Positions 9,069 through 43,376 are shown, counted from the stretch's first letter. The stretch: 64,000 nt of DNA from Pseudomonadota bacterium (GCA_027624315.1 JAQBXX010000004.1:442-64441), one strand, 5' to 3'. Notes: generated from the letters alone by a model not told the origin. Program-made: numbers and translations.

Positions 9069-9167
9069 TCAACGCAAAGACGCTAAGACGCCAAGCAGGC
9101 GAAAGTTCTTTGAGAAGATTATTTTTTGGAAGTTATATACCTTGGCGTCTTAGCGTCTTTGCGTTGA
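9069..9167. repeat. Octamer inverted-array element, copy 1
   Basis: Perfect 27-bp arms TCAACGCAAAGACGCTAAGACGCCAAG / CTTGGCGTCTTAGCGTCTTTGCGTTGA around an AT-rich loop. Confidence 0.9.
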
Positions 9168-9185
9168 GTCGTAAGGAACACAACC

Positions 9186-10268
9186 GTGAAGCCATCGATC
9201 CGCAGCAAGCTGGAAAATCTCTCCGAACGCCTGCACGAAATAAGCGCCCTGCTCGCCGACGCCGGGGTGATCCGCGATCAGACACGTTTCCGCACCTACT
9301 CGATGGAGTATGCCGAGCTGCGCCCCATCGTCGAGTGTTTTCAGCGCTACCAGTCCACGCTGGCCGACCTCGACGCCGCGCAACAGATGCTGCGCGAGGA
9401 CGATCCCGAACTGCACGTGCTGGCGGAGGAGGAAGTGAAACAGGCGCAGGCCAGACAGCAGTCGCTGGAAACCGAATTGCAGCGTCTGCTGCTGCCCACT
9501 GATCCGCACGATGCAGGCAACATCTTTCTTGAAATCCGCGCCGGTACCGGCGGCGATGAAGCAGCGCTGTTCGCGGGCGATCTCGCGCGCATGTACACGC
9601 GCTACGCCGAGCTGCGCCGCTGGCAGGTGGAGATCATCACCAGCAGCGCGGGCGAACACGGCGGTTACAAGGAAATCATCCTGCGCGTGATCGGCCACGG
9701 CGCCTTTTCGCGCCTCAAGTTCGAGTCCGGCGGGCACCGCGTACAGCGCGTGCCGACGACCGAGACGCAGGGACGCATCCACACCTCGACCTGCACCGTG
9801 GCGGTGATGCCCGAGGTGGCGGAGGTGGACGAGATCAAGATCAACCCCGCCGACCTGAAAGTGGATACCTTCCGCGCCAGTGGCGCGGGCGGCCAGCATG
9901 TCAACAAGACCGACTCCGCGATCCGCATCACCCACATGCCCACCGGCACGGTGGTCGAGTGTCAGGATGAGCGCTCGCAACACAAAAACCGCGCGCGCGC
10001 GATGTCGCTGTTGCAGGCGCGCCTGCTCGCTGCCGAGCAGGCCAGACAGCACAAGGCGGAGTCCGAACTGCGGCGTGACCTGGTCGGCAGCGGCGAGCGT
10101 TCCGACCGCATCCGTACCTATAATTTTCCGCAGGGCCGGCTTACCGATCATCGCATCAACCTCACGCTGTATCAGCTCGACAGTATCCTGCAAGGCCAGC
10201 TCGATGCAGTGATCAACCCGCTCATCAACGAGTACCAGGCCGACCAGTTGGCGGCGCTGGCCGGCTGA
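9186..10268 (+). CDS. prfA: Peptide chain release factor 1
   Basis: GGQ motif ([13 protein letters not shown]), PTT tripeptide, GTG start. Confidence 0.97.
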
Positions 10269-11221
10269 TGGCCCACGCCGCCAGCGCATACGGTGTGGCG
10301 CAGGCGCTCACTGATGCACGCCTGCGCCTGCGGCATCACGACACCGCCACGCTCGATGCGGCATTGTTGCTGTGTCACGTGCTCGATCAGCCACGCTCAT
10401 TTCTGCACACCCACGTCGGGCAGGCGCTCACTGCCTCCCAATGCGTACAGTTCGAAAATCTCATCGAGCGCCGTGCGTGCGGCGAGCCGGTGGCCTATCT
10501 CACCGGTTCGCGCGGATTCTGGTCGCTGGAGTTGTGTGTGACGCAAGACACACTCATCCCGCGCCCGGAAACGGAGCTGCTGGTCGAGCAGGCGCTGGAG
10601 CGCGTCCCACCGGATGCGGTATGGCGTATCGCCGATCTTGGCACCGGTTCGGGCGCGATTGCACTTTCCATCGCGCATGAGCGTCCGCGCTGCCACATTA
10701 TGGCAACGGATATTTCTGCGGCGGCGCTGGAAATCGCGCGTGCCAACGCTGAGCGGCTGAACATCCGCAACATCGAATTTCGCTTGGGCACGTGGTTTGA
10801 TCCATTGCAAAACGAACGCTTCGATATGATTGTTTCCAACCCGCCTTACGTGAAGAGCGATGATCCGCATTTGATGGATTTGCGTTTTGAGCCGGAGCTT
10901 GCGCTGGTGGCGGGTGTGGATGGGTTGCAGCATTTGCGTGCCATTGCTGAGCGGGCGCGCGAACATTTCACCCTCACCCCAACGGCTTCGCCCCCCTCGC
11001 TTCGCTCTCCCCAAAGGGAGAGGGGGCATTTACGCCCTTCTCCCTCCGGGAGAAGGGCTGGGGATGAGGGAGGCTGGTTGCTGCTGGAACATGGTTATGA
11101 TCAAGGGCGTGAGATGATGCAGATGCTTGCTGATTTCGGCTATACCTGCGTGCAGGATTACGCTGATCTGGCCGGTATGCCGCGCACAACAGTTGCGCAG
11201 TGGGTGGCGCCACATGAATGA
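10268..11221 (+). CDS. prmC: Release factor glutamine methyltransferase with an in-frame repeat insertion
   Basis: LIPRPETE, DLGTGSG, NPPY; extra segment before GGWLLLEHG. Confidence 0.93.
   Translation: MAHAASAYGVAQALTDARLRLRHHDTATLDAALLLCHVLDQPRSFLHTHVGQALTASQCVQFENLIERRACGEPVAYLTGSRGFWSLELCVTQDTLIPRPETELLVEQALERVPPDAVWRIADLGTGSGAIALSIAHERPRCHIMATDISAAALEIARANAERLNIRNIEFRLGTWFDPLQNERFDMIVSNPPYVKSDDPHLMDLRFEPELALVAGVDGLQHLRAIAERAREHFTLTPTASPPSLRSPQRERGHLRPSPSGRRAGDEGGWLLLEHGYDQGREMMQMLADFGYTCVQDYADLAGMPRTTVAQWVAPHE
10971..11070. repeat. CCCTCTCCC-type palindrome inside prmC
   Basis: CCCTCACCCCA...CTCTCCCCAAAGGGAGAG...CCCTTCTCCCTCCGGGAGAAGGG..TGGGGATGAGGG. Confidence 0.8.
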
Positions 11222-11972
11222 CGAGCAACTGCAACGTTACAGCCGCCAGATTTTGTTGCCTCAGGTTGAACTGGAAGGGCAGCAAAAATTGCTGAGTGCA
11301 CGCGTGCTGATTATCGGTCTCGGTGGGTTAGGCTCGCCGCTGGCGATGTATCTCGCCGCCGCCGGTGTCGGCCATTTGGTGATGGCCGATGACGACACTG
11401 TAGATTTATCCAACCTGCAACGCCAGATCATCCATCGTACGCAGGACATCGGGCGCGCAAAAACAGATTCTGCGCGCGCAACATTGAGCGCGCTCAATCC
11501 GTCAGTAAAAATCACCGCCTACAATCATCGCTTGACGGAAGAGGAATTGACGCGCGAAGTCGCACAGGCTGATGTGGTGGCCGACGCGAGCGACAATTTC
11601 GCGACACGCTTCATGCTGAATGCGGTGTGCGTAAAAACCAGAAAGCCATTGGTCTCCGGCGCCGCCATCCGCATGGAGGGGCAGATCGCGGTATTCGATC
11701 ATCGCCGCGATGACAGTCCCTGCTACCGTTGTCTCTATCGCGATGATCCGGGCGCGGACGAAAGCTGTGCACAGTTGGGTGTGCTTGCGCCGCTGCCGGG
11801 CATCATCGGCAGTGTGCAGGCGGTGGAGGTCATCAAGTTATTGTTGAATATCGGCACGCCGCTCAATGGACGCTTGCTGTTACTCGATGCGCTGTCCATG
11901 GAGTGGCGCACGGTGGCGCTGCGCAAAGACCCGCATTGCCCGGTGTGTGCCGCCCGCCCGGTGGAGGGTTAG
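11214..11972 (+). CDS. moeB: MoeB/ThiF-family adenylyltransferase
   Basis: RYSRQ, GLGGLG, SNLQRQ, CYRC and CPVC zinc motifs. Confidence 0.88.
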   Translation: MNDEQLQRYSRQILLPQVELEGQQKLLSARVLIIGLGGLGSPLAMYLAAAGVGHLVMADDDTVDLSNLQRQIIHRTQDIGRAKTDSARATLSALNPSVKITAYNHRLTEEELTREVAQADVVADASDNFATRFMLNAVCVKTRKPLVSGAAIRMEGQIAVFDHRRDDSPCYRCLYRDDPGADESCAQLGVLAPLPGIIGSVQAVEVIKLLLNIGTPLNGRLLLLDALSMEWRTVALRKDPHCPVCAARPVEG

Positions 11973-12194
11973 GCATTTTTCAGGCTTTCCCGCCCAAAAT
12001 GTAAGGCTGTAGTTTCAGTTTGTGCATGTACTGAGCCCTGCCAGTGGGACTCTAAGTTGCTGTGAAACCTATTAAAAATCGGGTTGCACGCGGGCTCGCA
12101 GACGGTTTTATCTGCGGGCGGGCGGCGAACGCGTTAAAATACGTCCGTCTGTAATTCATTCCAATTCCAATCCATTACCGGTGAAGCAATTCTC

Positions 12195-25129: not shown

Positions 25130-26506
25130 ATGAATCCGATAGTTCCACTCATCATGCGCTGGCGGCTGGTGTACGCCGCTTTTTTCGCGCTGCTGGCACG
25201 GCGCTGGAATAGACGCCTTTACCTATATCTCGCGGGGCTTTTCATGGTGTTCGCGCTGGCCGATGCGGTGTATTTTCGTCTCACGGTGGAGATGCGTCAG
25301 ACGGCGTTCGACAGCATGGTGGGTTATCGCATCATCGTGCCAAAACCCGACCCCGACATTGTCATTGTCGATATCAACGAGGCGAGCCTTGCCGCAATGG
25401 CACAGGATTACGGCCGCTGGCCGTGGCCGCGTCAGGTGTTGGGTGAGTTTCTGGAGCAGATCGAAAAGCAGAAGCCCGCAGCGGTGGTATTCGATATCCT
25501 GTTCAGCGACGCCGATGTCTTCAACCCCGACAGCGACGCTTATTTCAACACCGCTATCGCCGCCACCAACAATACATTCTTTCCCATGCTGCGGCTCGAC
25601 CCGGCGAGCGACGGCCTGAGCCAGATCAAGCCGTCGCTGATCCCCGGCGTCGAGGCGCTGTCGAATGCGGCGCAGCAAGACGCGACCGTGGCGGTGGTGC
25701 TGCCGCATTTTCCGGCGGCACTAAGCGGCGGGCGCCTGGGGCTGCACAATATTTATCCCGATGACGATGGCGTGGTGCGCCAGTATCTCGCCTACCGTGA
25801 TGACTACGGCTGGAAGCTGCCCACGCTGCCGGCGCGCATCGGGCGCGAGCTGGGCTGGCCGGCGCCGCAGGCGCAGAACGTGCTGCTCAATTGGCGCGGC
25901 GCGCCGTTCACGTATCGCTATGTGAGCTTTGCCGATGTGTTTGAGGATTTGACCAGCAAGCACAAAAGCCGTGCGCAAAACGAATTCACCGGCAAAATCG
26001 TGATCATCGGTTCGACCGCGCCGAGCCTGCTGGATATCAAACCGACGCCGTTGAGTCAGATGCATCCCGGCGTGGAAATTCTCGCCACCGCGATTGACAA
26101 CTTCAAGCACAATGATTATCTGCGCTTTCCCGATGCGCGCATTGCCTATCTGTTGCTGGCGCTGACGATAGTCTGGCTCAGCGCGTGGGGTTTTTACCGT
26201 GACGTCGGACACGGCAAAATGGATGCGTGGTTCGCCGCGTCGCAATTTATTCTGATCGGTGTTTCCTACGCCAGCATCAACTTCAGCAACGTCTACATAA
26301 ACCTCACCGGCCCGGTGACACTGGCGCTGGAGTATTACGCCGTGGCGCGGGTTTACGCTGCCGCCACCGGCAAGGTGCTGGAGCGCAGCGCGTTGCGCGC
26401 CTCGCTTGAACACGATGGCGAATTGCGCGCGACGTTGTTGTTGATTCGCCTCAACTCGGCGTTGCTGACCGAAGCGCTGCTGGAAAAAATCCGCGCAATC
26501 AGGTAA
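25130..26506 (+). CDS. CHASE2-domain membrane protein with no recognisable output domain
   Basis: [45 protein letters not shown], then three TM segments. Confidence 0.8.
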
Positions 26507-26543
26507 AGTGCGGCTTCTCAACTTGTCTGCATCGGGAATGAAC

Positions 26544-27236
26544 ATGCCGGAATATCTGCCAGAGTATCTGATAGCCCCGTCGATACTGTCGGCGAACTTT
26601 GCGCGTCTGGGCGAAGAAGTCGACAACGTGCTCAAGGCGGGCGCCGACGTCGTGCACTTCGATGTGATGGACAACCATTACGTGCCCAATCTCACCATCG
26701 GTCCGCTGGTGTGCGAGGCGCTGCGCAAGCACGGCGTCACCGCGCCGATCGACGTCCACCTCATGGTGAAGCCGGTGGACCGCATTATCCCCGACTTCGC
26801 CAAGGCCGGCGCCACCTATATTACTTTTCACCCCGAGGCCACCGAACACATCGACCGCTCGCTGCAACTGGTGCGCAGCCTGGGCTGCAAATCCGGCCTG
26901 GTGTTCAATCCGGCCACGCCGCTCGATCACCTGAAATACGTCATGGACAAGATCGACATGATCCTGCTCATGTCGGTCAACCCCGGCTTCGGCGGGCAGA
27001 GCTTCATCCCCGCTACGCTGCCCAAGCTGCGCGAGGCGCGCAAACTGATAGACGCCAGCGGCTATGACATCCGTCTGGAAATAGACGGCGGGGTGAACAC
27101 CGCGAACATCCGCGAGATCGCGGCGGCGGGCGCGGATACCTTCGTCGCAGGCTCGGCCATTTTCAGCACGCCGGATTACAAAGCCACCATAGACAAGATG
27201 CGCGCGGAATTGGCCAAAGCGGGTAAGGCCTCCTAA
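26544..27236 (+). CDS. rpe: Ribulose-phosphate 3-epimerase
   Basis: [36 protein letters not shown]; start approximate. Confidence 0.96.
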
Positions 27237-27242
27237 AAATCC

Positions 27243-27360
27243 AACGCAAAGACGCGAAGACGCAAAGATATAGAATCTAATGATTGTTTCCGCACTTTAA
27301 GCACTCGGTGGCCCACCTTGCCACATGAATTATTCCTTTGCGTCTTCGCGTCTTTGCGTT
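27243..27360. repeat. Octamer inverted-array element, copy 2
   Basis: Perfect 25-bp arms AACGCAAAGACGCGAAGACGCAAAG / CTTTGCGTCTTCGCGTCTTTGCGTT. Confidence 0.9.
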
Positions 27361-27383
27361 AAGGCTTTTTTAAAATTAATCTC

Positions 27384-28085
27384 ATGACATTAAAAATTCC
27401 CAAGATGGTGTTGATAGACCTGGACGGCACGCTGGTCGACAGCGCGCCCGATCTCGCCTATTGCGTGGACGAAACGCTTAAACACCTGGGCCTGCCGCCG
27501 CAAGGATTGGCGCGCGTGCGCGACTGGGTCGGCAACGGCGTGGAAAAGCTCATGCGCCGCGCGCTCACCGGTGACATCGACGGTGAACCTGATGTCGCCC
27601 TGCTCAAACGCGCCATGCCGGTTTTCCTGGAGCTATATGAGGGCAACCTCGCGCAGCGTAGCCATTTATTTCCCGGCATACGCGAAGGTATCGCGCTGCT
27701 TAAGGCGCAAGGCATTGCGTTGGGTTGCGTCACCAATAAAATCGCGCGTTTCACCGAGCCGCTGTTGAAACAGCTCGGCGTGCGCGATGCCTTCGCCATC
27801 GTGGTCAGCGGCGACACGCTGCCACAGAAAAAACCGCATCCCGCGCCGCTGCTGCACGCGGCACAGTTTTTTAACGTGGCGCCGCACGAGTCGCTCATGG
27901 TGGGCGACTCGGTGCACGACGTGGAGGCCGCGCGCGCCGCCGGTTTTCAGGTGGTGTGCGTGAGCTACGGCTACAACCACGGCAGCGACATCCGCGCCGC
28001 CCAGCCTGACGCAGTGATAGATTCTCTGCTAGAATTACCGAAGCTGTTTGATGCGAGTGGCGAGTGGCTAGTAGCGAGTGGCTAG
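27384..28085 (+). CDS. gph: Phosphoglycolate phosphatase
   Basis: [19 protein letters not shown]; rpe-gph-trpE order. Confidence 0.94.
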
Positions 28086-28119
28086 GAAAAACGTTTTTCC
28101 CTCGCCACTGGCTACTCGC
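28053..28119. repeat. Heptamer inverted-array element
   Basis: GCGAGTGGCGAGTGGCTAGTAGCGAGTGGCTAG - GAAAAACGTTTTTCC - CTCGCCACTGGCTACTCGC. Confidence 0.85.
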
Positions 28120-28131
28120 TCCTGCCTTAAT

Positions 28132-29649
28132 ATGACACCGCAACTATTCGACGCCCTGGCCCGTCAGGGCTATAACCGTATCCCGCTGGTACGCGAGGTC
28201 TGCGCTGACCTCGACACGCCGCTCAGCGCCTATCTCAAGCTCGCAAATGAACCGTATTCGTATTTATTCGAATCGGTGCAGGGCGGCGAGAAGTGGGGGC
28301 GTTACTCCATCATCGGTCTGCCGTGCCGCACCATCGTGCGCGTCTCCGGTCACGACATCAGCGTGGAGAAAGACGGCGCGATGACCGAGCAGGTGAAAGA
28401 CAGCGATCCGCTGCGCTGGATTGAGCAATTTCAGGCGCGCTACAAGATCGCCCCCGCTGCCGGACTGCCACGTTTCACCGGCGGCCTGGTCGGCTATTTC
28501 GGCTACGACACGGTGTGCTACATCGAGCCGCGTCTGGCGGGGACGCATAAACCCGACGCGCTCGGCACGCCGGACATTCTGCTCATGGTGTCGGACGAGG
28601 TGGTGGTGTTCGACAACCTGAGCGGCAAGCTTTATCTGGTGATCCACGTCAACCCGGCGCTGGAAGATGCCTGGAGCAGGGCGCAGGCCAGACTCGACGA
28701 GCTCGTCGAACGCTTGCAGCGCGCCACACCGCATCCGCATGACGCCGCGCACGTGCTGCGCGCAGAGGATTTCGTGTCCGGCTTCACGCAGCAGGGTTTT
28801 GAACAGGCCGTCGCGCGCGCCAAGCACTACATCGTGGAAGGCGACATCATGCAGGTGGTGTTGTCGCAGCGCCTCAGCGCGCCGTATGCAGGCAGCGCGC
28901 TGAATTTTTACCGCGCGCTGCGCACGCTGAACCCGTCGCCGTATATGTATTATCTCGATCTCGGCGATTTTCACGTGGTCGGTTCCTCGCCCGAAATTCT
29001 CACGCGCCTGGAAGACGGCATCATCACCGTGCGCCCCATCGCCGGCACGCGCAAGCGCGGTAGCACCGAAGAGGAGGACCGCGCACTGGAGCAGGAACTG
29101 CTCGCCGATCCGAAAGAGCGCGCCGAGCATTTGATGTTGATAGACCTGGGCCGCAACGACGTGGGGCGCGTGGCCGAGACCGGCAGCGTCCAGCTCACCG
29201 AGAAAATGCTGGTGGAGCGCTACTCGCACGTGATGCACATCGTGTCCAACGTCACGGGGCGGTTGCAAAAAGGCATGACGGCGCTGGACGCCCTGCGCGC
29301 CACCTTCCCGGCGGGCACGGTGAGCGGCGCGGCCAAAATCCGCGCCATGGAAATCATTGATGAGCTGGAGCCGGTGAAGCGCGGTATTTACTCCGGCGCG
29401 GTGGGCTATCTCGGCTGGAACGGCAACATGGATACCGCGATTGCGATCCGCACCGCCGTGCTCAAGGACGGCCTGCTGCACGTGCAGGCGGGCGCGGGCA
29501 TCGTCGCCGACTCGGTGCCGCGCACGGAATGGGAGGAGACCATGAGCAAGGCGCGCGCGTTGGTAAGTGCAGCGGTGACGGCATCCAGAGGTCTCGATGT
29601 CACCCCCGTCACAGTGCCGGAGATCGTTGAGGTTAGGCCATGCTCCTGA
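28132..29649 (+). CDS. trpE: Anthranilate synthase component I
   Basis: [32 protein letters not shown]. Confidence 0.96.
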
Positions 29650-30227
29650 TGATCGACAACTACGATTCCTTCACCTACAACCTGGTGCAATATCTGGGCG
29701 AGCTGGGCGCGGACGTGCGCGTGTTCCGCAACGACCGGATATCCACCGCCGAAATCAAAAAACTCGCGCCCGCGCAGATCGTCATCTCGCCGGGGCCGTG
29801 CACGCCGAATGAGGCGGGCGTGTCGGTGGATGCGATCAAGCAGTTCGCGGGGAAAATCCCGCTGCTCGGCGTCTGCCTTGGTCACCAGAGCATCGGCCAG
29901 GCGTTCGGCGGCAAGATCATCCACGCACGCGAACTGATGCACGGCAAGACCTCAATGATTTATCACACGGGCAAGGGTGTGTTTAAAGGTTTGCCGAGCC
30001 CGTTCGAGGCGACGCGCTATCACTCGCTGGTGATTGAAAAAGAAACGCTGCCGGACTGTCTGGAGATCACCGCGTGGACGCAGGACGCGCAAGGCAAGCT
30101 GGACGAGATCATGGGCGTGCGCCACAAGACACTCAATGTTGAGGGTGTACAGTTTCACCCGGAGTCCATACTCACGCAGTATGGGCACGATTTACTGAAG
30201 AATTTTTTACAAGCAAGTGGCGAGTAG
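29640..30227 (+). CDS. trpG: Anthranilate synthase component II (glutamine amidotransferase)
   Basis: [26 protein letters not shown]. Confidence 0.95.
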
Positions 30228-30283
30228 CGAGTGGCTAGGGAAAAACACTTTTACTCGCCACTAGCCACTCGCAACTAGCTACT
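30216..30283. repeat. Heptamer inverted-array element
   Basis: AGTGGCGAGTAGCGAGTGGCTAG - GGAAAAACACTTTT - ACTCGCCACTAGCCACTCGCAACTAGCTACT. Confidence 0.85.
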
Positions 30284-30292
30284 GAGATAACC

Positions 30293-31312
30293 ATGGACAT
30301 GCAAACCGCCATCCGCGCCGTGGTCGAGCGGCGTAATTTATCCGGGGACGAGATGACCGCGGTGATGGAGACCATCATGAGCGGTGCCGCCACCCCGGCG
30401 CAGATCGCAGGCTTTCTTATCGGGCTGCGCATGAAGGGCGAAACTATCGAGGAGATCGCCGCCGCCGCGCGCGTGATGCGCGAGCTGTGCACCAGGGTCG
30501 AGGTGCATGCGGAGCATCTGGTGGACACCTGCGGCACGGGCGGCGACGGCGCACACAGCTTCAATATCTCCACCGCCGCCGCGCTGGTGGCCGCCGCCGC
30601 GGGCGCGGTGGTCGCCAAGCACGGCAACCGCTCGGTGTCCAGTAAGTCCGGCAGCGCCGACGTGCTCGAGGCGGCGGGCGTCAATCTCGATCTCACGCCG
30701 GAGCAGGTCGCGGCGTGCATCGAAAAAATCGGCGTAGGATTTTTGTTCGCGCCCAGACATCACGGCGCGATGAAGCATGCCGCCGCGCCGCGCCGCGAGA
30801 TGGGCGTGCGCACGCTGTTTAATCTGCTCGGGCCGCTCACCAATCCCGCCGGTGCGCGCAACCAGGTGCTCGGTGTGTGGGGCGCCGAGTGGCTGGAGCC
30901 GCTCGCCTCCGCGCTGGCGCGCCTTGGCAGCCGCCATGTGCTGGTGGTCAACGCCGAAGACGGCATGGACGAGATCAGCATCGCCTCGCCCACGCACGTC
31001 GCGGAACTCAAGGACGGCGCCATTGTGACGTATGTCATTGTGCCGGAGGAATTCGGCATGACGCGCACCGACGGTGCGAGTCTGGTGGTGGCGAGTCCGC
31101 AGCAAAGTCTGGATGTCATCCACACGGTGCTGGACGGCACGCCGGGCCCTGCCGCCGACATCGTGGCGCTTAATGCCGGCGCGGCCATTTACGTCGCGGG
31201 TCTCGCGCCGACACTGGAGCAAGGCGTACGCAAGGCGCAGGCCGTGATCGCCAGCGGCGCGGCACGCAAAAAGCTTGCCGCATTAATCAACTTCACTCAG
31301 AATTTTAAATAA
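30293..31312 (+). CDS. trpD: Anthranilate phosphoribosyltransferase
   Basis: [28 protein letters not shown]. Confidence 0.97.
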
Positions 31313-31317
31313 AAAAC

Positions 31318-31469
31318 CAACGCAAAGACGCGAAGACGCAGAGAATACGAAGACGGTATGGTTCAAGAAGTTATGATTAGATCATTTCCGCCTTCTACTC
31401 TGCCTGGAGCAATCCCCAGTGGGACTTTAGCAGCCAAAAAAATCTTTGCGTCTTGGCGTCTTTGCGTTG
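31318..31469. repeat. Octamer inverted-array element, copy 3
   Basis: CAACGCAAAGACGCGAAGACGCAGAGA ... TCTTTGCGTCTTGGCGTCTTTGCGTTG, about 100-bp loop. Confidence 0.88.
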
Positions 31470-31483
31470 AGACTTGTTGATAC

Positions 31484-32311
31484 ATGACAGCGCAGCCCGA
31501 CATCCTGCAAAAAATACTCAAGCGCAAGGCGGAAGAAGTCACCGAGCGCAGTGCGGCATTGCCGTTGCGTGAGATGAGTCAACGCGCCGCCGCCGCGCCC
31601 GCACCACGTGGCTTCGCCGCTGCACTGGAGGCAACAATACAGCGTGGCGAAGCCGCCGTGATTGCCGAAATAAAAAAGGCCTCACCGAGCCGCGGCGTGA
31701 TGCGCGCCGATTTCCGCCCTGTCGAGATCGCGCAGGCCTACGAGCGTGCGGGCGCGGCGTGCCTGTCGGTGCTGACTGACCGGGATTTTTTTCAGAGCGA
31801 CGACGGTTACCTGGAGCAGGCGCGCGCGGCAACGAAGCTTCCCGTGCTGCGCAAGGATTTCACCATAGACGCTTACCAGATCTATGAGGCGCGGGCGCTG
31901 GGTGCGGATTGCATCCTGCTCATTGTCGCCGCGCTGGGGGATGCGCAGTTGCGCGAATTCTCCGGCCTCGCCGCGCACCTCGACATGGATGTGCTGGTGG
32001 AGGTGCACGATGATGACGAGTTGGAGCGCGCGCTCCAACTCGATGCGCGACTCATCGGCGTCAACAATCGCAACCTGCGCACCTTTGAGACCACGCTTTC
32101 CGTCACGCTCGATCTGCTCGATAACATTCCTTACGACCATATCGTGGTCACCGAGAGTGGCATCCGCACGCAGGAGGATGTCGCCCTGATGCGCAAGCAC
32201 GGCGTGCACGCCTTTCTTGTCGGCGAGGCGTTCATGGTGGCGCCCGATCCCGGTGCGGCGCTCGCCGCCCTGTTTTCCAGTCCGAAAAACACGCATAATG
32301 TTCCCCTATGA
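31484..32311 (+). CDS. trpC: Indole-3-glycerol phosphate synthase
   Basis: [26 protein letters not shown]. Confidence 0.97.
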
Positions 32312-32727
32312 AGGCGCGCGTGAAATGGGTGGAGAACAGCACGTTTGTCGCACAAAGCGGCAGCGGTCACTCCGTGGTGCTGGACGGCCCGCCGGAGGCG
32401 GGCGGGCAGAATCTCGGCGTGCGGCCGATGGAGATGGTGCTGCTGGGGCTGGGCGGCTGCACCGCGTTTGACGTGGTGGACATCCTCAGGAAAAAGCGCG
32501 AGACCATCAGCGATTGCGTGGTCGAGATCAGCGCCGAGCGCGCCGACACCGTGCCCAAGGTGTTCACCAAGATACACCTGCACTACATTGTGCGCGGCAG
32601 CAACGTGAAGGAAGAATCGGTGAAGCGCGCGGTGGAGTTGTCGGCGGAAAAATACTGCTCGGTGTCGATGATGCTGAACAAGAGCGTCGCGATGACGCAC
32701 GACTATGAAATTGTAAAGACTGACTAA
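32308..32727 (+). CDS. OsmC/YhfA-family protein
   Basis: [24 protein letters not shown]. Confidence 0.9.
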
Positions 32728-32730
32728 AAG

Positions 32731-32873
32731 CTCAACGCAAAGTCGCCAAGACGCCAAGACGCCAGGGTTTATGATAAGTAATCCGATTCAACCAAGGTAC
32801 CCATTCTCGCCTGAAATGCCTGCTGCCTTGACCGGCAGCAGTAATGTTTTTGGCGTCTTTGCGTCTTTGCGTT
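32731..32873. repeat. Octamer inverted-array element, copy 4
   Basis: CTCAACGCAAAGTCGCCAAGACGCCAAGACGCCA ... TGGCGTCTTTGCGTCTTTGCGTT. Confidence 0.85.
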
Positions 32874-32897
32874 AGATTTTGTCAGAGCTATAAGCCC

Positions 32898-33293
32898 ATG
32901 GCTAAACCCAGCCCCATCGTAGGCCTGCGCCACCTCGCCCTCAAGGTGCATGACCTCGCCGCGTGCGAGCGTTTCTATGTGGACCTGATTGGCATGCAGG
33001 TGGACTGGCGGCCGGACGCCAGCAATCTCTATCTCACCTCCGGCAGTGACAATCTGGCCTTGCACCATAATCCCGCCGCGTTTGACCCGCCGGCGCATCA
33101 GCGCCTCGATCACCTGGGCTTCGCGCTCGAAACCCCCGATCAGGTAGACGCCTGGCATGTCTATCTGAGCGATCAGGGCGTGGTCATCAAGGCCGCGCCG
33201 CGCACGCACCGCGACGGCTCGCGCAGCTTTTACTGCACGGATCCGGACGGCAACACGGTACAATTCATTTGTTTGCCGGTGCCCAGGAGATAG
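32898..33293 (+). CDS. VOC/glyoxalase-family protein
   Basis: [29 protein letters not shown]. Confidence 0.88.
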
Positions 33294-33300
33294 TCGCGGC

Positions 33301-34185
33301 ATGGTGAAGCAACTCAAGAAGCTCAGACTGCAAGGGTTTAACAACCTGACCAAGACCCTCAGCTTCAACATCTACGATATCTGCCACACCACGTCGCTGA
33401 AACAGCGCCGTGAATATATCGAATACATCGACGAGGTCTATAACGCCGAGCGGCTGACACACATCCTGACCGAGGTGTGCAATCTGATCGGCGCCAACAT
33501 CCTCAACATCGCGCATCAGGACTATGATCCGCAGGGCGCGAGCGTCACCATGCTGATCTCCGAGGAGCCGACCCTGGCGCGCGACATGAGCAACGCCGAG
33601 ACGCCCGGCCCGTTGCCGGAGGCGGTGGTCGGGCATCTCGACAAGAGTCACATCACGGTGCACACCTATCCGGAGAGCCACCCCGGCAACGGCATCAGCA
33701 CCTTCCGCGCCGACATCGACGTCTCCACCTGCGGACGCATCTCGCCGCTACGCGCCTTGAACTACCTGGTGCACAGCTTTGACTCCGACATCGTCATCAT
33801 GGACTACCGCGTGCGCGGCTTTACCCGCGATGTCTCCGGCAAGAAGTACTTCATCGACCACCGCATCAATTCGATCCAGAACTTCATCGCCAAGCCGACG
33901 CGCGACCGCTACCAGATGATCGACGTCAACGTCTATCAGGAGAACACCTTTCACACCAAGATGTTGCTCAAGGAATTCGATCTCAACAATTATCTGTTCG
34001 GCGCCACCAAGGAAGGGCTCGATCCGGATGAGCGCAAACTCGTCAAGCAGAGCCTGAAGCATGAGATGGCGGAGATTTTCTACGGACGCAACATACCCAA
34101 GATGGGGCGCTTGAGAAAAGTGAGCAAAACGAAAAAAAGAAGAAGAAAAAGACGGGCAGCTAGTAGTCTGCTCTGGAGTTCATGA
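33301..34185 (+). CDS. speD: S-adenosylmethionine decarboxylase proenzyme (E. coli type)
   Basis: [35 protein letters not shown]. Confidence 0.95.
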
Positions 34186-35257: not shown

Positions 35258-36172
35258 ATGACAGCAACGGTGCAGGCGCTGGGCCTCACCAAGGTCTATA
35301 GCGGACAGACGGTGGTGGACGGCATTGAGCTTGCCGTTTTTCCGGGCGAGTGCTTCGGCCTGCTGGGGCCCAACGGCGCGGGCAAGACCACCACGTTGCG
35401 CATGTTGCTCGGACAGACTCCGCCCGACGCCGGCAGCCTCACCGTGCTCAACCACCGCATACCCGAAGATGCGCGGGACATGCGCGCGCGCGTCGGCCTC
35501 GTGCCGCAGCAGGACAATCTCGACCCCGATTTTACCGTACTCGAAAACCTGCGCGTGTATGCCAGTTACTTCGGCTTGTCCGGCCCCGCGTTGCAGCGCC
35601 GCATCGACGAGCTGCTCGGCTTCGTGCAGCTGGAGGCCAAGGCGCAGGCCGGCATCAGCACACTCTCCGGCGGCATGAAGCGCAGGCTCACGCTCGCGCG
35701 CGCACTCATCAATCAGCCCGACCTGCTCATTCTCGACGAACCCACCACCGGTCTCGATCCGCAGGCGCGCCAGATCATCTGGCAGCGGCTGCGCTCGCTG
35801 CTCGCGCAGGGCAGGACGCTGATCCTCACCACGCATTACATGGAAGAGGCTGAGCGCCTGTGCGACCGCGTGGCGATCATGGATCACGGCCGCATACTGG
35901 CCTGCGGCAGTCCGCACGCACTCATCAAACAATACATCGAGCCGCATGTGTTGGAGGTGTACGGGCCGGAGGTCGAGACCTGGCAGGAGGACGTGGCGCG
36001 GCAGCACGCACGCCGCACCGAGCGCGTGGGCGAAACGGTGTTCTGTTACGCCGAGGACGAGGGTGCGCTGCTCGATGATCTGCGCCGCCGACCGCAACTG
36101 CGTTTCATGCACCGCCCCGGCAATCTGGAAGACGTGTTTTTAATACTCACCGGACGGGAGCTGCGAGAGTGA
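35258..36172 (+). CDS. ABC-2 ATP-binding protein (NodI-like)
   Basis: GPNGAGKT, LSGGMKRRL, LDEPTTGLDPQAR. Confidence 0.9.
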   Translation: MTATVQALGLTKVYSGQTVVDGIELAVFPGECFGLLGPNGAGKTTTLRMLLGQTPPDAGSLTVLNHRIPEDARDMRARVGLVPQQDNLDPDFTVLENLRVYASYFGLSGPALQRRIDELLGFVQLEAKAQAGISTLSGGMKRRLTLARALINQPDLLILDEPTTGLDPQARQIIWQRLRSLLAQGRTLILTTHYMEEAERLCDRVAIMDHGRILACGSPHALIKQYIEPHVLEVYGPEVETWQEDVARQHARRTERVGETVFCYAEDEGALLDDLRRRPQLRFMHRPGNLEDVFLILTGRELRE

Positions 36173-36185: not shown

Positions 36186-36267
36186 CTCAACACAAAGCCG
36201 CCAAGACGCGAAGGTTTTTAGGCTATGTCTCTTTGCGTTCTCTGCGCCTTAGCGGCTTTGCGTTGAG
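36186..36267. repeat. Octamer inverted-array element, copy 5 (degenerate)
   Basis: CTCAACACAAAGCCGCCAAGACGCGAAG ... GCGCCTTAGCGGCTTTGCGTTGAG. Confidence 0.75.
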
Positions 36268-36287: not shown

Positions 36288-37064
36288 ATGAACCACACAC
36301 TGCCCACCATCAGTCTGCGCTGGATACCCGTCTGGCGGCGCAACTTTCTGGTCTGGCGCAAACTGATCGGGCCCGCGCTGCTCGGCAATTTCGGCGAGCC
36401 GCTGCTCTACCTGCTCGCGCTCGGTTACGGCCTCGGCAGCTTCGTGGGCGAGGTCGGCGGCTTGTCTTACAGCGTGTTCCTCGCCGCCGGCATCGTCTGC
36501 GGCAGCGCCATGAACACCGCCACCTTCGAGGGTCTCTATTCCGCCTACACCCGCATGGCGCACCAGCAGACCTGGGGCGGCATGCTGGCCACGCCGCTCA
36601 GCGTGGATGACATCGTGCTGGGCGAGATGATCTGGGCCGGCACTAAGAGCCTACTCTCGGCGGCCCCCATCCTGCTGGTCGCGGCGCTGCTCGGCCTGGT
36701 GCACGGCTGGGCCGCGCTGTGGGTGCTGCCCGTGGTGCTGCTGGCTGGCGTCTGTTTCGGCGCGCTCGCGCTGGTGGTGACCGCGCTGGCGAAGAGCTAC
36801 GACTTCTTTCTGTATTACTTCACGCTCATCGTGACACCGATGTTTCTGTTCAGCGGCGTATTTTTCCCGCTCGACGGCATGCCCATGGCGGTGCAATGGG
36901 GCGCGCAGGTGCTGCCGCTCACCCATGCCATTGCCATCGTGCGCCCGCTCATGACCGGCCAGCCGCTGCCCCACCTCCTGCCGCACCTGCTGGTGCTGCT
37001 GGGGTATGGCGCTGTCGCCTTTTATCTCGCCATCGGCCTGTTGCGGCGACGCTTGTTGGCCTGA
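36288..37064 (+). CDS. ABC-2 permease (NodJ-like)
   Basis: VWRRNFLVW, EPLLYLLALGYGLG, PMFLFSGVFFP. Confidence 0.9.
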   Translation: MNHTLPTISLRWIPVWRRNFLVWRKLIGPALLGNFGEPLLYLLALGYGLGSFVGEVGGLSYSVFLAAGIVCGSAMNTATFEGLYSAYTRMAHQQTWGGMLATPLSVDDIVLGEMIWAGTKSLLSAAPILLVAALLGLVHGWAALWVLPVVLLAGVCFGALALVVTALAKSYDFFLYYFTLIVTPMFLFSGVFFPLDGMPMAVQWGAQVLPLTHAIAIVRPLMTGQPLPHLLPHLLVLLGYGAVAFYLAIGLLRRRLLA

Positions 37065-38442: not shown

Positions 38443-38516
38443 TGGGGGATCGTCTAGCGGTAGGACTACGGACTCTGACTCCGTTAACCGAGGTTCGAAT
38501 CCTCGTCCCCCAGCCA
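38443..38516 (+). tRNA. tRNA-Gln(CUG)
   Basis: TGGGGGA/TCCCCCA acceptor stem, ACGGA-CTCTGAC-TCCGT anticodon arm, GGTTCGAATCC, CCA end. Confidence 0.96.
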
Positions 38517-38523: not shown

Positions 38524-38598
38524 ACAGTGGCTAGTGGCGAGTGGCTAGTAGCTAGGAACAACCAACCTCGCCACTCGCTACTCGCTACTCGCCACTGT
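38524..38598. repeat. Heptamer inverted-array element (empty)
   Basis: ACAGTGGCTAGTGGCGAGTGGCTAGTAGCTAG - 11 nt - CTCGCCACTCGCTACTCGCTACTCGCCACTGT. Confidence 0.9.
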
Positions 38599-39180: not shown

Positions 39181-39234
39181 TTGACAACATGTCAGATCAT
39201 TATAAACTAGATAAACTAGTCTGCAAACCAGACT
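39181..39234 (+). promoter_or_regulatory. Promoter and operator of the phd-vapC module
   Basis: TTGACA-N16-TAAACT, then inverted repeat AGTCTG-CAAAC-CAGACT. Confidence 0.6.
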
Positions 39235-39251
39235 GAATGGAGGGGTGTGTC

Positions 39252-39491
39252 ATGAAAACCGTCGGCGCCTTTGAAGCAAAAACCCATTTGTCCCGCCTGC
39301 TGGATAAAGTCGAACAGGGGGAAAAGATTACCATAACCCGGCACGGAGCGCCCGTCGCCAGGCTGGTGCCGGTTGAAACGGAGGAAAAGCCCGACGTTAA
39401 AAAGGTGATTGAGGAAATCCGGGCCTTTCGCAAAGGTAACAAACTGAGGGGCCTTTCGCTGCGTAAAATGATTGAAGAAGGGCGGGCTTGA
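39252..39491 (+). CDS. Phd/YefM-family antitoxin
   Basis: MKTVGAFEAKTHLSRLLDKVEQGEKITITRHG. Confidence 0.92.
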   Translation: MKTVGAFEAKTHLSRLLDKVEQGEKITITRHGAPVARLVPVETEEKPDVKKVIEEIRAFRKGNKLRGLSLRKMIEEGRA

Positions 39492-39907: not shown

Positions 39908-39962
39908 GCTTCTTGAGCCTCATGTCACTCGGTCAAGCCCTGGGGATGGTTGCCGAGCAAAC

Positions 39963-40135
39963 TTAGGGAACCTCTGATTTAATCAGAGGTTCCTGCGGTG
40001 CAGGGATGCACCGCCATTTTTCAAACACGGAAGTGTTTGAAAAATGAAGAAAAGCACCATAAATAATCTTATGGCCACGTTTTTGCTTTTCGTGCTCTGA
40101 GAAGTCCAGGATGGACTTATTCAGAGCTTCCTTAG
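39963..40135. mobile_element. MITE-like family B multi-hairpin element
   Basis: Imperfect TIR TAGGGAACCTCTGATTTA / TTATTCAGAGCTTCCTTA; internal hairpins with AGGGAT, GGAA and AGGAT loops. Confidence 0.7.
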
Positions 40136-40210
40136 GTCACGTTGCGTAAGCTACGTGACGGAGCTGCGAAGCCGCGCATCCTGTCAGGCAGCTTACGCAG
40201 CCTGACCTAC
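40133..40210. repeat. GTAG-type REP-like element abutting MITE B
   Basis: TAGGTCACGTTGCGTAAGCT ... AGCTTACGCAGCCTGACCTAC. Confidence 0.6.
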
Positions 40211-40374
40211 AATTGCCCGGTGTGTTGCTTTTTAGCAACACCGACGCAAGAACTGTAGTTTTTTTAATAAAAAGTGTTGCAGGGCCGCTAAAGGCGTGAT
40301 ACGTTTCGCATGTCAATTGACGTCAATCGACACCTGTAACACAACTTTCGATCTTTTCGATAAGGAGATAATGA

Positions 40375-41328
40375 ATGAACAAGAAAATTCTTGCAGTAGC
40401 CATTGCAAGCGCGATGGCAGCCCCGTTCGCGATGGCCGACGAAGGTAGCGTCACCATCAGCGGCAACGTGGGTGCAGCCGTCACCTCGATAAAGAATAAT
40501 GACGACACGAGAGCCTCCGATGTCGATGCGGGCGGTTCAGATCTGTCCATTTCCGGCTCTGAGAACATCGGCAACGGCCTGAAGGCCGTGTTCGTGCTGA
40601 AGAGCTGGCTCAATGTCACTGGAAACGCGGATCAGCCACCAGCTTCCTCGCTGCTGTTTGGTAATAACAAGGACGCCTTCGTGGGTCTGGCCGGTAACTT
40701 CGGCACCATAGCCCTCGGCGCCCATGGCCAGCCCTACAAGACGGCCACCGGCGGTCTGGAACTGTTCGGCGACACCATCGGCGACGCCCGTGGCTCCGTC
40801 ACCAACGGCCAAGGCAGCTTCCACTCCGGCATCGGCGATGCTGTGATCTGGTTCCTGCCCAACATGAACGGCTTCAGCGGCCACGTGCAGATAGGCTCTG
40901 AAAATAACACGAATAACGGCGCACAGAAGCGCGGTGCACAGTTTAATTACAGCAACGGCCCGCTGTATATGACCTATGCCTATGCCGATGATGACGCTAC
41001 GGCCAATGAAACAGGCAACAAGTTCGGCGTCGGCTACGGCTTCGGCGACACCAAGATCAACGTCGTCGCTGAACGCACCAAGGTGCAGGATGGTACAGCC
41101 ATAAGCGCCTACTCCGTGGGCTTGGCGCATAAATTCGGCGCCAACACCGCGAAAATCCAGTTTGCCAGCAACGATTCTGGCGCGGCTGATGTAAGCATCT
41201 GGGCGGTGGGTCTGGATCATGCGTTGTCCAAGCGCACCGGTCTGTACGCTGTGTACGCCGATGGCGACAACCTGGCGTCAACGGAGATGGATAACGGGTT
41301 AGAAGTGGGTATAGGCCACAGCTTCTAA
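40375..41328 (+). CDS. Gram-negative trimeric porin
   Basis: Signal peptide MNKKILAVAIASAMAAPFAMA, GSENIGNGLKA, LDHALSKRT, C-terminal GIGHSF. Confidence 0.9.
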   Translation: MNKKILAVAIASAMAAPFAMADEGSVTISGNVGAAVTSIKNNDDTRASDVDAGGSDLSISGSENIGNGLKAVFVLKSWLNVTGNADQPPASSLLFGNNKDAFVGLAGNFGTIALGAHGQPYKTATGGLELFGDTIGDARGSVTNGQGSFHSGIGDAVIWFLPNMNGFSGHVQIGSENNTNNGAQKRGAQFNYSNGPLYMTYAYADDDATANETGNKFGVGYGFGDTKINVVAERTKVQDGTAISAYSVGLAHKFGANTAKIQFASNDSGAADVSIWAVGLDHALSKRTGLYAVYADGDNLASTEMDNGLEVGIGHSF

Positions 41329-41356
41329 GCAGTTAATAAATATTAAAGTTGTTTCG

Positions 41357-41384
41357 ACGGGCGCCTTCGGGCGCCCGTTTTTTA
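41357..41384 (+). terminator. Intrinsic terminator after porin
   Basis: ACGGGCGCC-TTC-GGGCGCCCGT followed by a T-run. Confidence 0.85.
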
Positions 41385-41443
41385 TGTGCGCCTGAAATTT
41401 GGTATCATGTACACCGCACTTATGGCTAATGGCGGAGGTGGCT

Positions 41444-41689
41444 ATGCTCTATTCCATTTTATACGAAAGGATTAACGACCCTTCCCTGCCTGAAGGATAT
41501 TATTACGCCCATATACCTGTGCTTGACTTGACAACGCACGGCAAGGGCATTGATGGCGCTAAAGCAGCGGCATTGGATTTGTTGCAGCTGTGGGTTGATG
41601 AGAAGCGCGCAAATGGAGAGGCTGTTCCTGTTGAGCAAGAGGCGTTTTTTTCACAGATAGAAATTAACGATGCCGTTCTCAGCGCGTGA
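41444..41689 (+). CDS. hicB: HicB-family antitoxin (short, no DNA-binding tail)
   Basis: [28 protein letters not shown]; GGAGG SD before ATG 41444. Confidence 0.75.
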
Positions 41690-41876
41690 GATAACGACCA
41701 AGCTGATGCGCGCCGGGTTTGAGGTGAAGCGACAATCCGGCTCACACAAAATTCTTCGACACCTTGATGGTAGGCAGACTTATGTCGCGATGCATCCGGG
41801 TGATGTCCCGGAAGGCACATTCCGTAAAATTCTAAAGCAGGCAGGGCTGTCGATTGATGAGTTCAGGCGGCTCTGA
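41670..41876 (+). CDS. hicA: HicA-family toxin
   Basis: [29 protein letters not shown]. Confidence 0.88.
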
Positions 41877-41959
41877 TATCACTCCCAGGCGACCCCCCCG
41901 ATAGCCATGCAAAGAAGGATCAGTGCCCAAGAAGGATCAGGGTCTAGCTAAATAGCATC

Positions 41960-42030
41960 GTAGGTCTGTTCAATCCGAAGTCGGAACCGACACACCAAAC
42001 GTCGGATCCGCTGCGCTTGATCCGACCTAC
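41960..42030. repeat. GTAG-type REP doublet
   Basis: GTAGGTC...GTCGGATCCGCTGCGCTTGATCCGACCTAC; right unit is the reverse complement of the 19943 unit. Confidence 0.8.
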
Positions 42031-42044
42031 GCCGCTACACATAA

Positions 42045-43289
42045 TTAAACCGCTGCTATCATCCCCGCCGCGACGGTGTTGTTGGTGTGTTCGTCGATGA
42101 CGATGAAGGCGCCGCTGGCGCGGTTATTGCGATAGACATCACACACCAAGGGCCGTTGCACCTTGATCAGCACGCGGCCAATTTCATTCATCTTCAGCTC
42201 GCTCGCCTCGCCTGTGGCGAGCGTGTTGATGTCCACCTTGTGTTCGATCTCCTGCACGACGGCCTTCGCCGTATGCGTGGTGTGCTTGATGAGATATTTG
42301 CCGCGCGGCTGCAAGGGCTGCTCGCTCATCCAGCACAGCATGGCATGAAATTCGTGCGCGCTGCGCGGGGGGTTTTCCGGGTGAACAATCATGTCGCCGC
42401 GCGAGATGTCGATGTGGTCTTCCAGCGTAAGCGTAACCGACTGCGGCGCGCACGCCTCGGTGATATTGCCGTCGTAAGTGACGATGTGCTTGATGCGCGA
42501 GCGATGGCCCGAAGGCAGCACGACAATCTCATCGCCCGCGCGGACAGAACCGGACTCGATGCGCCCCATGTAGCCGCGAAAGTCCGGCCGGCCCGATATC
42601 TGCGGGCTGCACACGAGCTGCACCGGAAAACGGAAGTCGCGCAGGTTGATGTCGTGCTGGATGTGGATGCCCTCCAGCGTGTTGAGCAGGGTGTCACCTG
42701 TGTACCATGGCATGTGCGCACTTCTGTCCACCACGTTATCGCCGTGCAGCGCCGAAATCGGTATGAAGCTTACATCGCGCGCGCCGAGTTGGGTGCAGAA
42801 CGCGCTGAATTCGGTTTTTATGGTGTGATATATCGCCTCTGAATAATCGACCAGATCCATTTTGTTGATGGCGGCGATCAGGTGTGGAATGCCGAGCAGT
42901 TGTGCAATGTAGGCATGACGGCGCGACTGCGTGAGCACGCCCTTGCGCGCGTCGATCAGCACAATGGCGAGATTCGCAGTAGAGGCGCCGGTGACCATGT
43001 TGCGCGTGTACTGTTCATGGCCCGGGGTGTCGGCGATGATGAACTTGCGCCTGGGAGTGGCGAAATAACGGTAGGCGACGTCAATCGTGATGCCTTGCTC
43101 ACGCTCGGCCTGCAGACCATCGGTGAGCAGTGACAGATCGACGCCGGTGCCGCCGCGCCGCTCGGTGCTGCGCTCCATGGCCTGCAACTGGTCTTCGAAG
43201 ATGGACTTGGCGTCATAGAGCAGGCGCCCGATGAGCGTGCTCTTGCCGTCGTCCACGCTGCCTGCGGTGGTGAAGCGTAATAGATCCAT
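42045..43289 (-). CDS. cysN: Sulfate adenylyltransferase subunit 1 (no APS-kinase domain)
   Basis: LRFTTAGSVDDGKST, EREQGITIDVAYRYF, DTPGHEQYTRNM. Confidence 0.95.
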   Translation of the reverse strand: MDLLRFTTAGSVDDGKSTLIGRLLYDAKSIFEDQLQAMERSTERRGGTGVDLSLLTDGLQAEREQGITIDVAYRYFATPRRKFIIADTPGHEQYTRNMVTGASTANLAIVLIDARKGVLTQSRRHAYIAQLLGIPHLIAAINKMDLVDYSEAIYHTIKTEFSAFCTQLGARDVSFIPISALHGDNVVDRSAHMPWYTGDTLLNTLEGIHIQHDINLRDFRFPVQLVCSPQISGRPDFRGYMGRIESGSVRAGDEIVVLPSGHRSRIKHIVTYDGNITEACAPQSVTLTLEDHIDISRGDMIVHPENPPRSAHEFHAMLCWMSEQPLQPRGKYLIKHTTHTAKAVVQEIEHKVDINTLATGEASELKMNEIGRVLIKVQRPLVCDVYRNNRASGAFIVIDEHTNNTVAAGMIAAV

Positions 43290-43310
43290 TAGCATAAATA
43301 CCGATAAAAA

Positions 43311-43376
43311 CTCAACGCCAAGCCGCCAAGACGCAAAGCAGGAACAGAAAATAAATCTTTGCGTCTTCGCGTTGAG
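43311..43376. repeat. Octamer inverted-array element, copy 6
   Basis: CTCAACGCCAAGCCGCCAAGACGCAAAG ... CTTTGCGTCTTCGCGTTGAG. Confidence 0.82.

Follow-up and report, generated by a model that had tools for sequence, protein, structure and literature searches.

Six octamer-array hairpins in operon spacers of a Pseudomonadota bacterium as probable gene-less members of a GxxExxY cassette family

Introduction

What are long, nearly perfect palindromes doing in the short spacers of housekeeping operons? The question is raised by a stretch of 64,000 nucleotides from a Pseudomonadota bacterium (GCA_027624315.1, JAQBXX010000004.1:442-64441), which is called "the window" in the following. An earlier note on this DNA had described six inverted arrays of octamers between positions 9069 and 43376, and it had proposed that they are empty copies of a cassette that carries a gene of the GxxExxY family. 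GxxExxY is a named family in NCBIfam and Pfam (TIGR04256 / PF13366); it comprises thousands of bacterial proteins, and its function is listed as unknown (PMC3424549). In full-text literature searches the name GxxExxY occurred in three papers, and no paper that described the arms or the cassette was retrieved. The analysis reported here led to the conclusion that the six elements are, with a probability of roughly 0.7, the gene-less form of palindromic cassettes that belong to a horizontally spread family and carry a GxxExxY gene when complete. An orphan protein family and a set of unexplained intergenic hairpins would thereby become one testable system with a defined DNA architecture, and the long palindromes inside essential operons would be accounted for in annotation.

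Results

Six inverted octamer arrays separate co-directional genes

The six inverted repeats were found at the places described earlier, both by direct reading and by an unbiased inverted-repeat search of the window. Their arms consist of tandem AAGACGCN octamers with the outer end (C/T)CAACGC, and the arms are not palindromic themselves. Motif counts against shuffled sequences agreed: AAGACGCNAAGACGC had 12 matches with up to two mismatches (0.87 expected), all of them inside the six loci, and none of 100 shuffles reached 12. For CAACGCAAAG with up to one mismatch 20 matches were present in the window, versus 6.6 expected.

Each element is located in a short intergenic spacer, with co-directional operon genes on both sides. 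The first (el1, 9069-9167, plus strand) lies between hemA (stop codon 9060-9062) and prfA (GTG start at 9186), and its arms (9069-9095 and 9141-9167, TCAACGCAAAGACGCTAAGACGCCAAG) form 27 bp with 100% complementarity around a loop of 45 nt with 31% G+C (9096-9140). On the same strand follows el2 (27241-27364) between rpe (stop 27234-27236) and gph (ATG at 27384), with arm cores of 30 nt at 27243-27272 and 27331-27360, 93% complementarity and a loop of about 68 nt. The trpD/trpC spacer (trpD stop 31310-31312, trpC ATG at 31484, plus strand) contains el3 (31317-31471), the 27-nt arms of which (31318-31344 and 31443-31469) are 93% complementary and enclose about 100 nt. Between osmC (stop 32725-32727) and a gene of the glyoxalase family (ATG at 32898) lies el4 (32731-32875, plus strand), with arms of 24 nt (32734-32757 and 32850-32873), 92% complementarity and a loop of about 90 nt. 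The remaining two copies are decayed. El5 (36186-36267, plus strand) separates a nodI-like ABC ATPase gene (stop 36170-36172) from a nodJ-like permease gene (ATG at 36288), and its 29-nt arms are 83% complementary. El6 (43311-43376) is short, has a loop of 18 nt and belongs to a minus-strand operon, in which it lies between cysD (stop 43408-43410) and cysN (start 43295).

The distance from the upstream stop codon to the element was 3-13 nt for el1 to el5, as described before, and 31 nt for el6, and in all six cases the next start codon followed 14-22 nt after the end of the element. The stems have 24-30 bp and the loops 17-100 nt. The loops had been called unique and AT-rich, and both attributes were confirmed: their G+C contents are 28-46%, versus 62% for the whole window, and a loop-to-loop comparison among the six elements revealed no similarity. 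Target-site duplications were not visible in the flanks of the window copies, nor in those of the copies in two loci from other genomes (L001 and L207, see below); instead, the flanks tend to lengthen the palindrome by an A-run and a T-run.

Such an arrangement could suggest that the hairpins are RNA elements selected by the host, i.e., stabilizers, processing sites or attenuating terminators that tune the neighboring cistrons, and that the link to GxxExxY is incidental. The predicted RNA folds are indeed very stable, with -57 to -69 kcal/mol for el1 to el4 (z -5.4 to -9.3) and about -40 kcal/mol for el5 and el6 (z -2.9 and -3.5). The siting from stop codon to next start codon is exact, and the A-rich and T-rich flanks give the lengthened palindromes the look of two-way terminators. 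Like the known stabilizers of the repetitive extragenic palindromic (REP) and bacterial interspersed mosaic element (BIME) types and like intrinsic terminators, the elements are stable stem-loops directly 3' of stop codons. In contrast to them, the stems are far longer, the loops are large, and a canonical U-tract right after the stem is missing; an intrinsic terminator has a short G+C-rich stem, a loop of 3-8 nt and an immediate U-tract, and the window elements do not have this form. A terminator scan called only a mini-hairpin in el4 and fragments at arm ends, but no whole element. Furthermore, two of the sites part subunits of one enzyme or transporter (cysD/cysN and ABC ATPase/permease), where termination would be harmful. 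Rfam at gathering thresholds yielded only two tRNAs in the whole window and no RNA family for the elements. Further evidence, which is given below, also bears on host selection, and overall we regard it as improbable.

The mini-hairpin in the loop of el4 (32820-32841) has 8 bp and is followed by TAATGTTTTT, and it was this part that was called terminator-like. A comparison with the orthologous copy in a related genome (L121, see below) revealed one compensatory change from T-A to C-G and two broken pairs at its base.

The octamer arm is present in many phyla

The arm pattern AACGCAAAGACGCNAAGACGC, which specifies 20 bases in a 21-nt arm, was scanned in one genome per species (596 Gb). The arm was found in at least 119 genome contigs, while about one is expected by chance according to our own arithmetic. 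Among the matches listed, the carriers were Acidobacteriota, Verrucomicrobiota, Chlamydiota, Chloroflexota, Planctomycetota, Bacteroidales, Gammaproteobacteria (Wenzhouxiangella, Thioalkalivibrio) and others, and 85 paired hairpins of 57-530 nt, mostly of about 60-240 nt, could be recognized. The family consensus is an inverted array of the octamer NCGCNAAG with the outward end TCA(A)CGC. A general description of an arm is two or more NCGCNRAG units with a period of 8 (sometimes 9) and the outer end TCA(A)CGC. It applies to all six window elements, which are thus ordinary members of the cassette family, and also to 37 cassette arms and to the arrays at 80 loci. An arm can have between 2 and 8 units. 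Local selection for structure alone would hardly account for an identical arm sequence in so many phyla.

The placement behind stop codons is also a family feature. For all phyla and among the matches listed, 53 of 89 hairpins abutted the stop codon of an open reading frame (ORF) of at least 100 amino acids (-3 to +20 nt from the stop), compared with 7.3 +/- 2.7 after random placement within the same loci, with an ORF-based gene calling that is crude for placement and orientation counts. In the acidobacterial locus L001 four empty copies share an interior of about 140 nt with a column identity of 83%, and three of the four are located directly behind the stop codons of consecutive genes. The shared interiors show that empty copies also multiply as empty copies, as miniature inverted-repeat transposable elements (MITEs) do.

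Four arm matches were found on viral contigs, and none of these contigs had a GxxExxY gene; this makes no case for carriage by phages. One of the contigs, from IMG/VR and classed as viral (L208), has at least four octamer-array hairpins at about 2288-10544, and no GxxExxY gene was present within the 10.9 kb examined.

The same arms enclose intact GxxExxY genes

The two largest paired elements among the matches listed each contained an intact ORF in the loop. The ORF encodes 126 amino acids in one case (L028:5735-6264) and 134 amino acids in the other (L056:2326-2799), and both proteins are members of TIGR04256 (E 1e-40 and 5e-38, respectively). A third intact gene between the same arms was found in L207, which is described below, and in L006 the arms enclose a decayed GxxExxY remnant. 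The earlier note would have given up its proposal had gene-bearing copies been absent everywhere; because such copies exist, the proposal was upheld.

The reverse approach, a search for arms beside GxxExxY ORFs, gave the same picture. At least 77 of 80 metagenomic GxxExxY genes had NCGCNRAG arrays with a period of 8 or 9 within 450 nt. In the most common layout a left array is followed by the gene and by a right array in inverse orientation, with about 30-50 nt from the beginning of the left array to the start codon and 5-20 nt from the stop codon to the right array. In other loci the gene is accompanied by complete hairpins, either on one side or on both. Protein identity correlated with arm identity (r = 0.43), and this value was reached by 0 of 500 permutations, showing that the arms and the gene evolve as one unit.

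The cassettes resemble the window elements also in their relation to host genes. In 37 cases the cassette gene and the host gene upstream of it had the same direction, compared with 8 cases of opposite direction, and in 26 of 34 cassettes the stop codon of the upstream ORF preceded the first arm unit by 6-31 nt, or the ORF ran into the arm. The gene has about 125 codons and apparently no promoter of its own, and the arrangement fits a promoter-less gene that would make use of host transcription. The interiors and genes of the cassettes have a G+C content of 43-45% in a host with 64%; this low-G+C interior is foreign, and it agrees with the AT-rich window loops.

The residues E28, D68, E78 and K80 were invariant in 46 diverse GxxExxY sequences. 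The AlphaFold2 model of the protein had a very high confidence (predicted local distance difference test score, pLDDT, 95.9), and the modeled structure is a PD-(D/E)XK fold with an intact catalytic E...D...ExK constellation and without a close characterized relative. A sequence search against the PDB gave no match for the protein, and neither did PADLOC.

The trpG-trpD spacer harbors full, deleted and empty forms

One syntenic site, the spacer between trpG and trpD, was occupied differently in the window and in its relatives. A clean cassette, composed of an arm, an intact GxxExxY gene and an arm, was found in L207. In L206 an intact cassette is accompanied by an adjacent hairpin, and so is the cassette of L121, the gene of which is interrupted by an in-frame TGA. 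The octamer hairpin of L123 is empty; it shares the left arm (24 of 25 nt) and is located exactly in the spacer that contains the cassettes of L121, L206 and L207. In the window the site is occupied by a hairpin of another arm type, the heptamer family (GTGGCGA/GTAGCTA units), which contains the trpG stop codon (30216-30283). The earlier note had spoken of a parallel heptamer family, and the inverted-repeat search recovered it in the window at this site and at 38526-38596 and 63191-63316. Among the relatives, this one site can thus be occupied by either arm family. In L125 only a 12-nt palindrome, GCGGCTAGCCAC, is present.

The adjacent hairpin of L206 revealed how a gene-less copy can come about. 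Its loop matched the first approximately 36 nt of the cassette, including the start codon, in diverged form (Smith-Waterman score 46 vs. 16.8 +/- 2.4), and it also matched the region of codons 38-46, approximately (30 vs. 17.6 +/- 2.6). The junction of the 5' end with a piece of the coding region shows that this hairpin is an internally deleted cassette. Altogether, an interior derived from a cassette was found for the L206/L121 hairpin and for L006. The syntenic GxxExxY genes at the trpG-trpD site had ratios of nonsynonymous to synonymous substitution rates (dN/dS) of 0.14-0.18, and the protein was thus kept functional in vertical descent.

It might be argued that the palindromes arose locally by slippage of octamers and inverted duplication, without any mobile element. 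The varying number of 2 to 8 units per arm would be in line with such an origin, as would one truncated arm in L206 that looks like the result of slippage between units, the overlap of the heptamer hairpin at trpG-trpD with native coding sequence, and the short palindrome of L125 at that place. Slippage accounts for the number of units, but not for the origin of the element. The arms co-diverge with the linked gene, the interior has a foreign base composition, and the recurrence of one 21-nt arm, including its outer end, in many phyla comes close to a refutation. A local origin is therefore very improbable.

The insertions also have a consequence for gene annotation. The trpG calls of L121 (3698-4309) and L207 (2-592) run on into the left cassette arm and predict 203 amino acids, whereas TrpG of the window has 195. 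In both genomes the native trpG stop codon seems to have been replaced by the insertion, and a short C-terminal tail to have been added. Therefore, upstream ORFs may be extended into arms, and such calls should be read with caution.

Copies come and go among close relatives

The window stems from an aquatic metagenome. Its TrpC is closest to the TrpC proteins of uncultured Gammaproteobacteria, and several relatives could be compared with it. In L121, with a TrpC identity of 82% and flanking genes that are about 90% identical, el2 (L121:1131-1248) and el4 are present at orthologous positions and their loops are nearly identical to those of the window, while el3 has the same arms and a loop that is about 85 nt shorter. 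In L123 el3 is degenerate, and el4 and el5 are absent, with spacers of 6 and 2 nt, respectively. Both L125 and L207 are devoid of el3 and el4. Even strains with an identity of 96-97% (runs X3 and X8) differed around el4, where they had 49 and 54 nt in place of 207 and 212 nt. The elements thus come and go over a short evolutionary scale.

Contigs of the runs X3, X4 and X8 (window region 26500-33500) contained junctions of the left arm of one element with the right arm of another, e.g., 32759>31440 via AAATCC, with short novel loops. These junctions indicate that further copies with the same arms and other loops exist in those genomes. The genes trpC and osmC overlap in the window, whereas in L125 they are separated by an insertion of two small ORFs (L125:2319-2725); judged by eye, the pair may represent a toxin-antitoxin system of the HicB/HicA type.

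For host-selected RNA elements the conservation of el2 and el4 in L121, including their loops, would be expected. The presence or absence of copies among close relatives, including the 96-97% identical strains, and the decay of el5, el6 and the L123 copy of el3 argue against it.

Conservation resides in the motif, not in the pairing

Two of the window elements have long perfect or nearly perfect arms, and the earlier note had taken this as a sign that selection or conversion maintains the pairing. The variable arm positions are 10, 14, 18, 22 and 23. At these positions partner arms agreed in 253 of 435 cases, compared with 240 +/- 7 for shuffled partners, so that the covariation that the note had wished to see measured was marginal (z of about 2). 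Transition mismatches read on the sense strand comprised 38 G·U and 41 A·C pairs, without a bias to G·U, using an orientation heuristic that is crude and that mis-oriented at least one L121 copy. Because arm agreement was close to that of shuffled partners and G·U was about as frequent as A·C, the conserved feature is a sequence motif on both arms, and not base pairing as such; a maintenance of pairing was not supported across the family. Recognition of the octamers by a protein, or descent with decay, fits this better than selection that acts on an RNA helix. RNA elements selected by the host should prefer G·U over A·C and should show compensatory covariation of the arms, of which there is almost none.

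Discussion

Origin of the window copies

The assignment of the six window elements to the gene-less form of the cassette has to be weighed against several results. A profile search of the six-frame translation found neither a GxxExxY gene nor a remnant of it in the window (best E 0.8), and it is this negative result that makes the window copies the gene-less form. The window loops were compared with 83 cassette DNAs (blastn-short) and with the L206 cassette (Smith-Waterman), and the scores were no better than those of shuffled sequences. Since no similarity to cassettes is detectable, we infer that the window loops are remnants of cassette deletions only from the arms, the position and the relatives; the low G+C content is the only feature of the loops themselves that agrees with it. 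The good conservation of the el2 and el4 loops in L121 leaves room for some constraint. Since the spacer flanks, too, vary among the relatives, neither a clean filled/empty junction nor a target-site duplication could be defined. Lastly, the nearest solved folds retrieved by Foldseek for the GxxExxY model, Cas4 and lambda exonuclease (both PD-(D/E)XK), were weak matches (E about 1e-3, template modeling score 0.46-0.59). All these points count against the proposed assignment. An 11-nt match between the el2 loop and the tail of the L121 cassette, which was suggestive by eye, was not significant.

Empty copies probably arise in two ways: gene-bearing cassettes would suffer internal deletions, and copies that are already empty would be copied in turn. 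The analysis links the GxxExxY family to a DNA architecture with inverted octamer arrays, a site adjacent to a stop codon, co-orientation with host genes and abundant gene-less copies.

Comparison with known systems

In the REPIN/RAYT system REP doublets form hairpins (REPINs), and the gene of the REP-associated tyrosine transposase (RAYT) is flanked by its own REPs (PMC3116915, PMC3337134, PMC5581495). The two systems have in common that short non-coding hairpin copies are scattered between genes, that one protein gene has these repeats, inverted to each other, on its two sides, that the gene is vertically inherited under purifying selection and co-diverges with the repeats, and that no target-site duplication is evident. 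They differ in the protein, which here has 125 amino acids and a PD-(D/E)XK fold, whereas RAYTs are tyrosine transposases of the HUH/Y1 type that resemble those of IS200/IS605. They also differ in the repeats, which here are tandem octamer arrays, whereas a REP is a single imperfect palindrome of 20-40 bp, and in their distribution, because the octamer arm is common to many phyla and REP sequences are lineage-specific.

Another precedent is given by the intervening sequences in the 23S rRNA of Coxiella and Leptospira, which contain an S23p/four-helix-bundle ORF, have inverted repeats at their ends and are cut out by RNase III (PMC4990558). Following this example, the cassette may have no mobility of its own, the arms may serve its excision by RNase III, spread may occur via horizontal transfer plus recombination or host functions, and the role of the protein may be unrelated to the arms. 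Several observations are in accordance with this idea. Both systems have a small ORF without a promoter that lies within inverted repeats and is inserted into a host transcript, and in both cases horizontal acquisition is followed by vertical inheritance and the ORF tends to decay. Co-directionality of the cassette genes with the upstream host gene, and vertical inheritance of the syntenic GxxExxY gene under purifying selection, also fit. A four-helix-bundle gene itself (PF05635, 23S_rRNA_IVP, E 2e-32) was found in an analogous periodic-arm cassette directly after rpsI (L121:11023-11391), with a third arm type of GATACAAG-like units. The earlier note had also named this protein type for a search beside the octamer arms; it was seen only with other arm types, as in L121, and never with octamer arms. 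The two systems differ in location, with the octamer elements between protein-coding cistrons (6 of 6) and the intervening sequences in helix 25 or 45 of 23S rRNA, and in the ORF family, which is GxxExxY instead of S23p; 23S rRNA motifs were absent from the fetched loci in an exact-match search. A function of the arms as a double-stranded RNA stem alone would predict that the sequence is free to vary and that pairing is kept, and the opposite was observed. In addition, the multiplication of empty copies within a genome (L001) needs copying at the DNA level. We therefore consider a cassette without its own mobility rather unlikely.

Correia elements, also called NEMIS (Neisseria miniature insertion sequences), and the enterobacterial repetitive intergenic consensus (ERIC) or intergenic repeat unit (IRU) elements are MITEs with homogeneous interiors that are transcribed within operons. 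Correia elements have TA target duplications and have been reported to be cut by RNase III. They share with the octamer elements a length of 60-150 bp, terminal inverted repeats, a position between co-transcribed genes and long RNA hairpins. In contrast, the window copies have unrelated loops and no visible duplication, and their autonomous partner would be a nuclease cassette and not the transposase of an insertion sequence.

Finally, the hairpins could be viewed as attC-like sites and the GxxExxY genes as cassettes of the integron type. Imperfect inverted repeats, variable centers and promoter-less genes occur in both, and the outer ends resemble RYYYAAC...GTTRRRY in four of the six copies. 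However, the GTTGAG part of this match is set by the family consensus, so that only one position is truly free. The gene lies inside the repeat and not beside it, the copies are single and dispersed in housekeeping operons instead of forming arrays, and the arms are long, nearly perfect and periodic, without the extrahelical bases that are typical of attC. This relationship is hardly credible and was rejected because of the layout; intI was not searched for.

Taken together, the cassette system differs in a defining feature from REPIN/RAYT, i.e., the type of nuclease and the arm architecture, and from rRNA intervening sequences, i.e., the insertion context.

A possible mechanism

Given their stop-adjacent and mostly co-directional siting, the elements are probably transcribed as part of the host operon. 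A search for RNA runs gave one mangrove metatranscriptome, which contained 5% of the sampled words and was left out of the analysis, and none for the Thioalkalivibrio locus L077. In the transcript the arms would fold into a stem of 25-30 bp. By analogy with the 23S rRNA intervening sequences, it is conceivable, albeit doubtful, that this stem is a substrate of RNase III, the cleavage of which would free the cassette mRNA and leave the host cistrons functional. On the DNA level, the GxxExxY nuclease might act on the octamer arms, in the form of either a cruciform or folded single-stranded DNA, and mobilize or maintain copies in trans, similar to RAYTs and REPINs; this analogy is the likeliest of the models considered, but it is put forward tentatively. 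If the nuclease does act on the arms, a second, non-HUH route to REPIN-like elements would exist, and a compact structure- or sequence-specific nuclease would be at hand. The host most likely tolerates the six copies as passengers and does not use them as selected regulators.

It is tempting to speculate further that the GxxExxY cassettes form an uncharacterized class of autonomous mobile elements. A minimal PD-(D/E)XK nuclease would read its own inverted octamer arrays as folded DNA or a cruciform and would bring the cassette, as well as derivatives without the gene, by copying or homing to sites just behind the stop codons of transcribed genes, expression would come from host read-through, and the six hairpins as well as the heptamer family would be its MITE-like progeny. 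We offer this extended proposal as a working model that may well fail.

Further inverted repeats in the window and in L121

The heptamer-type hairpin at 38526-38596 follows within about 12 nt of a tRNA gene (38443-38513), and the same arrangement of a tRNA gene and a hairpin with periodic arms, here of AAGGGCA units, was found in L121 (11440-11590). Such hairpins thus also sit behind RNA genes. Two additional inverted repeats were detected in the window. One, at 40133-40209, has arms of 27 nt with a complementarity of 85% that are separated by 23 nt, and the other, at 57512-57654, has perfect 18-nt arms (AGGGTACCTCTAAAAATG) that are separated by 107 nt.

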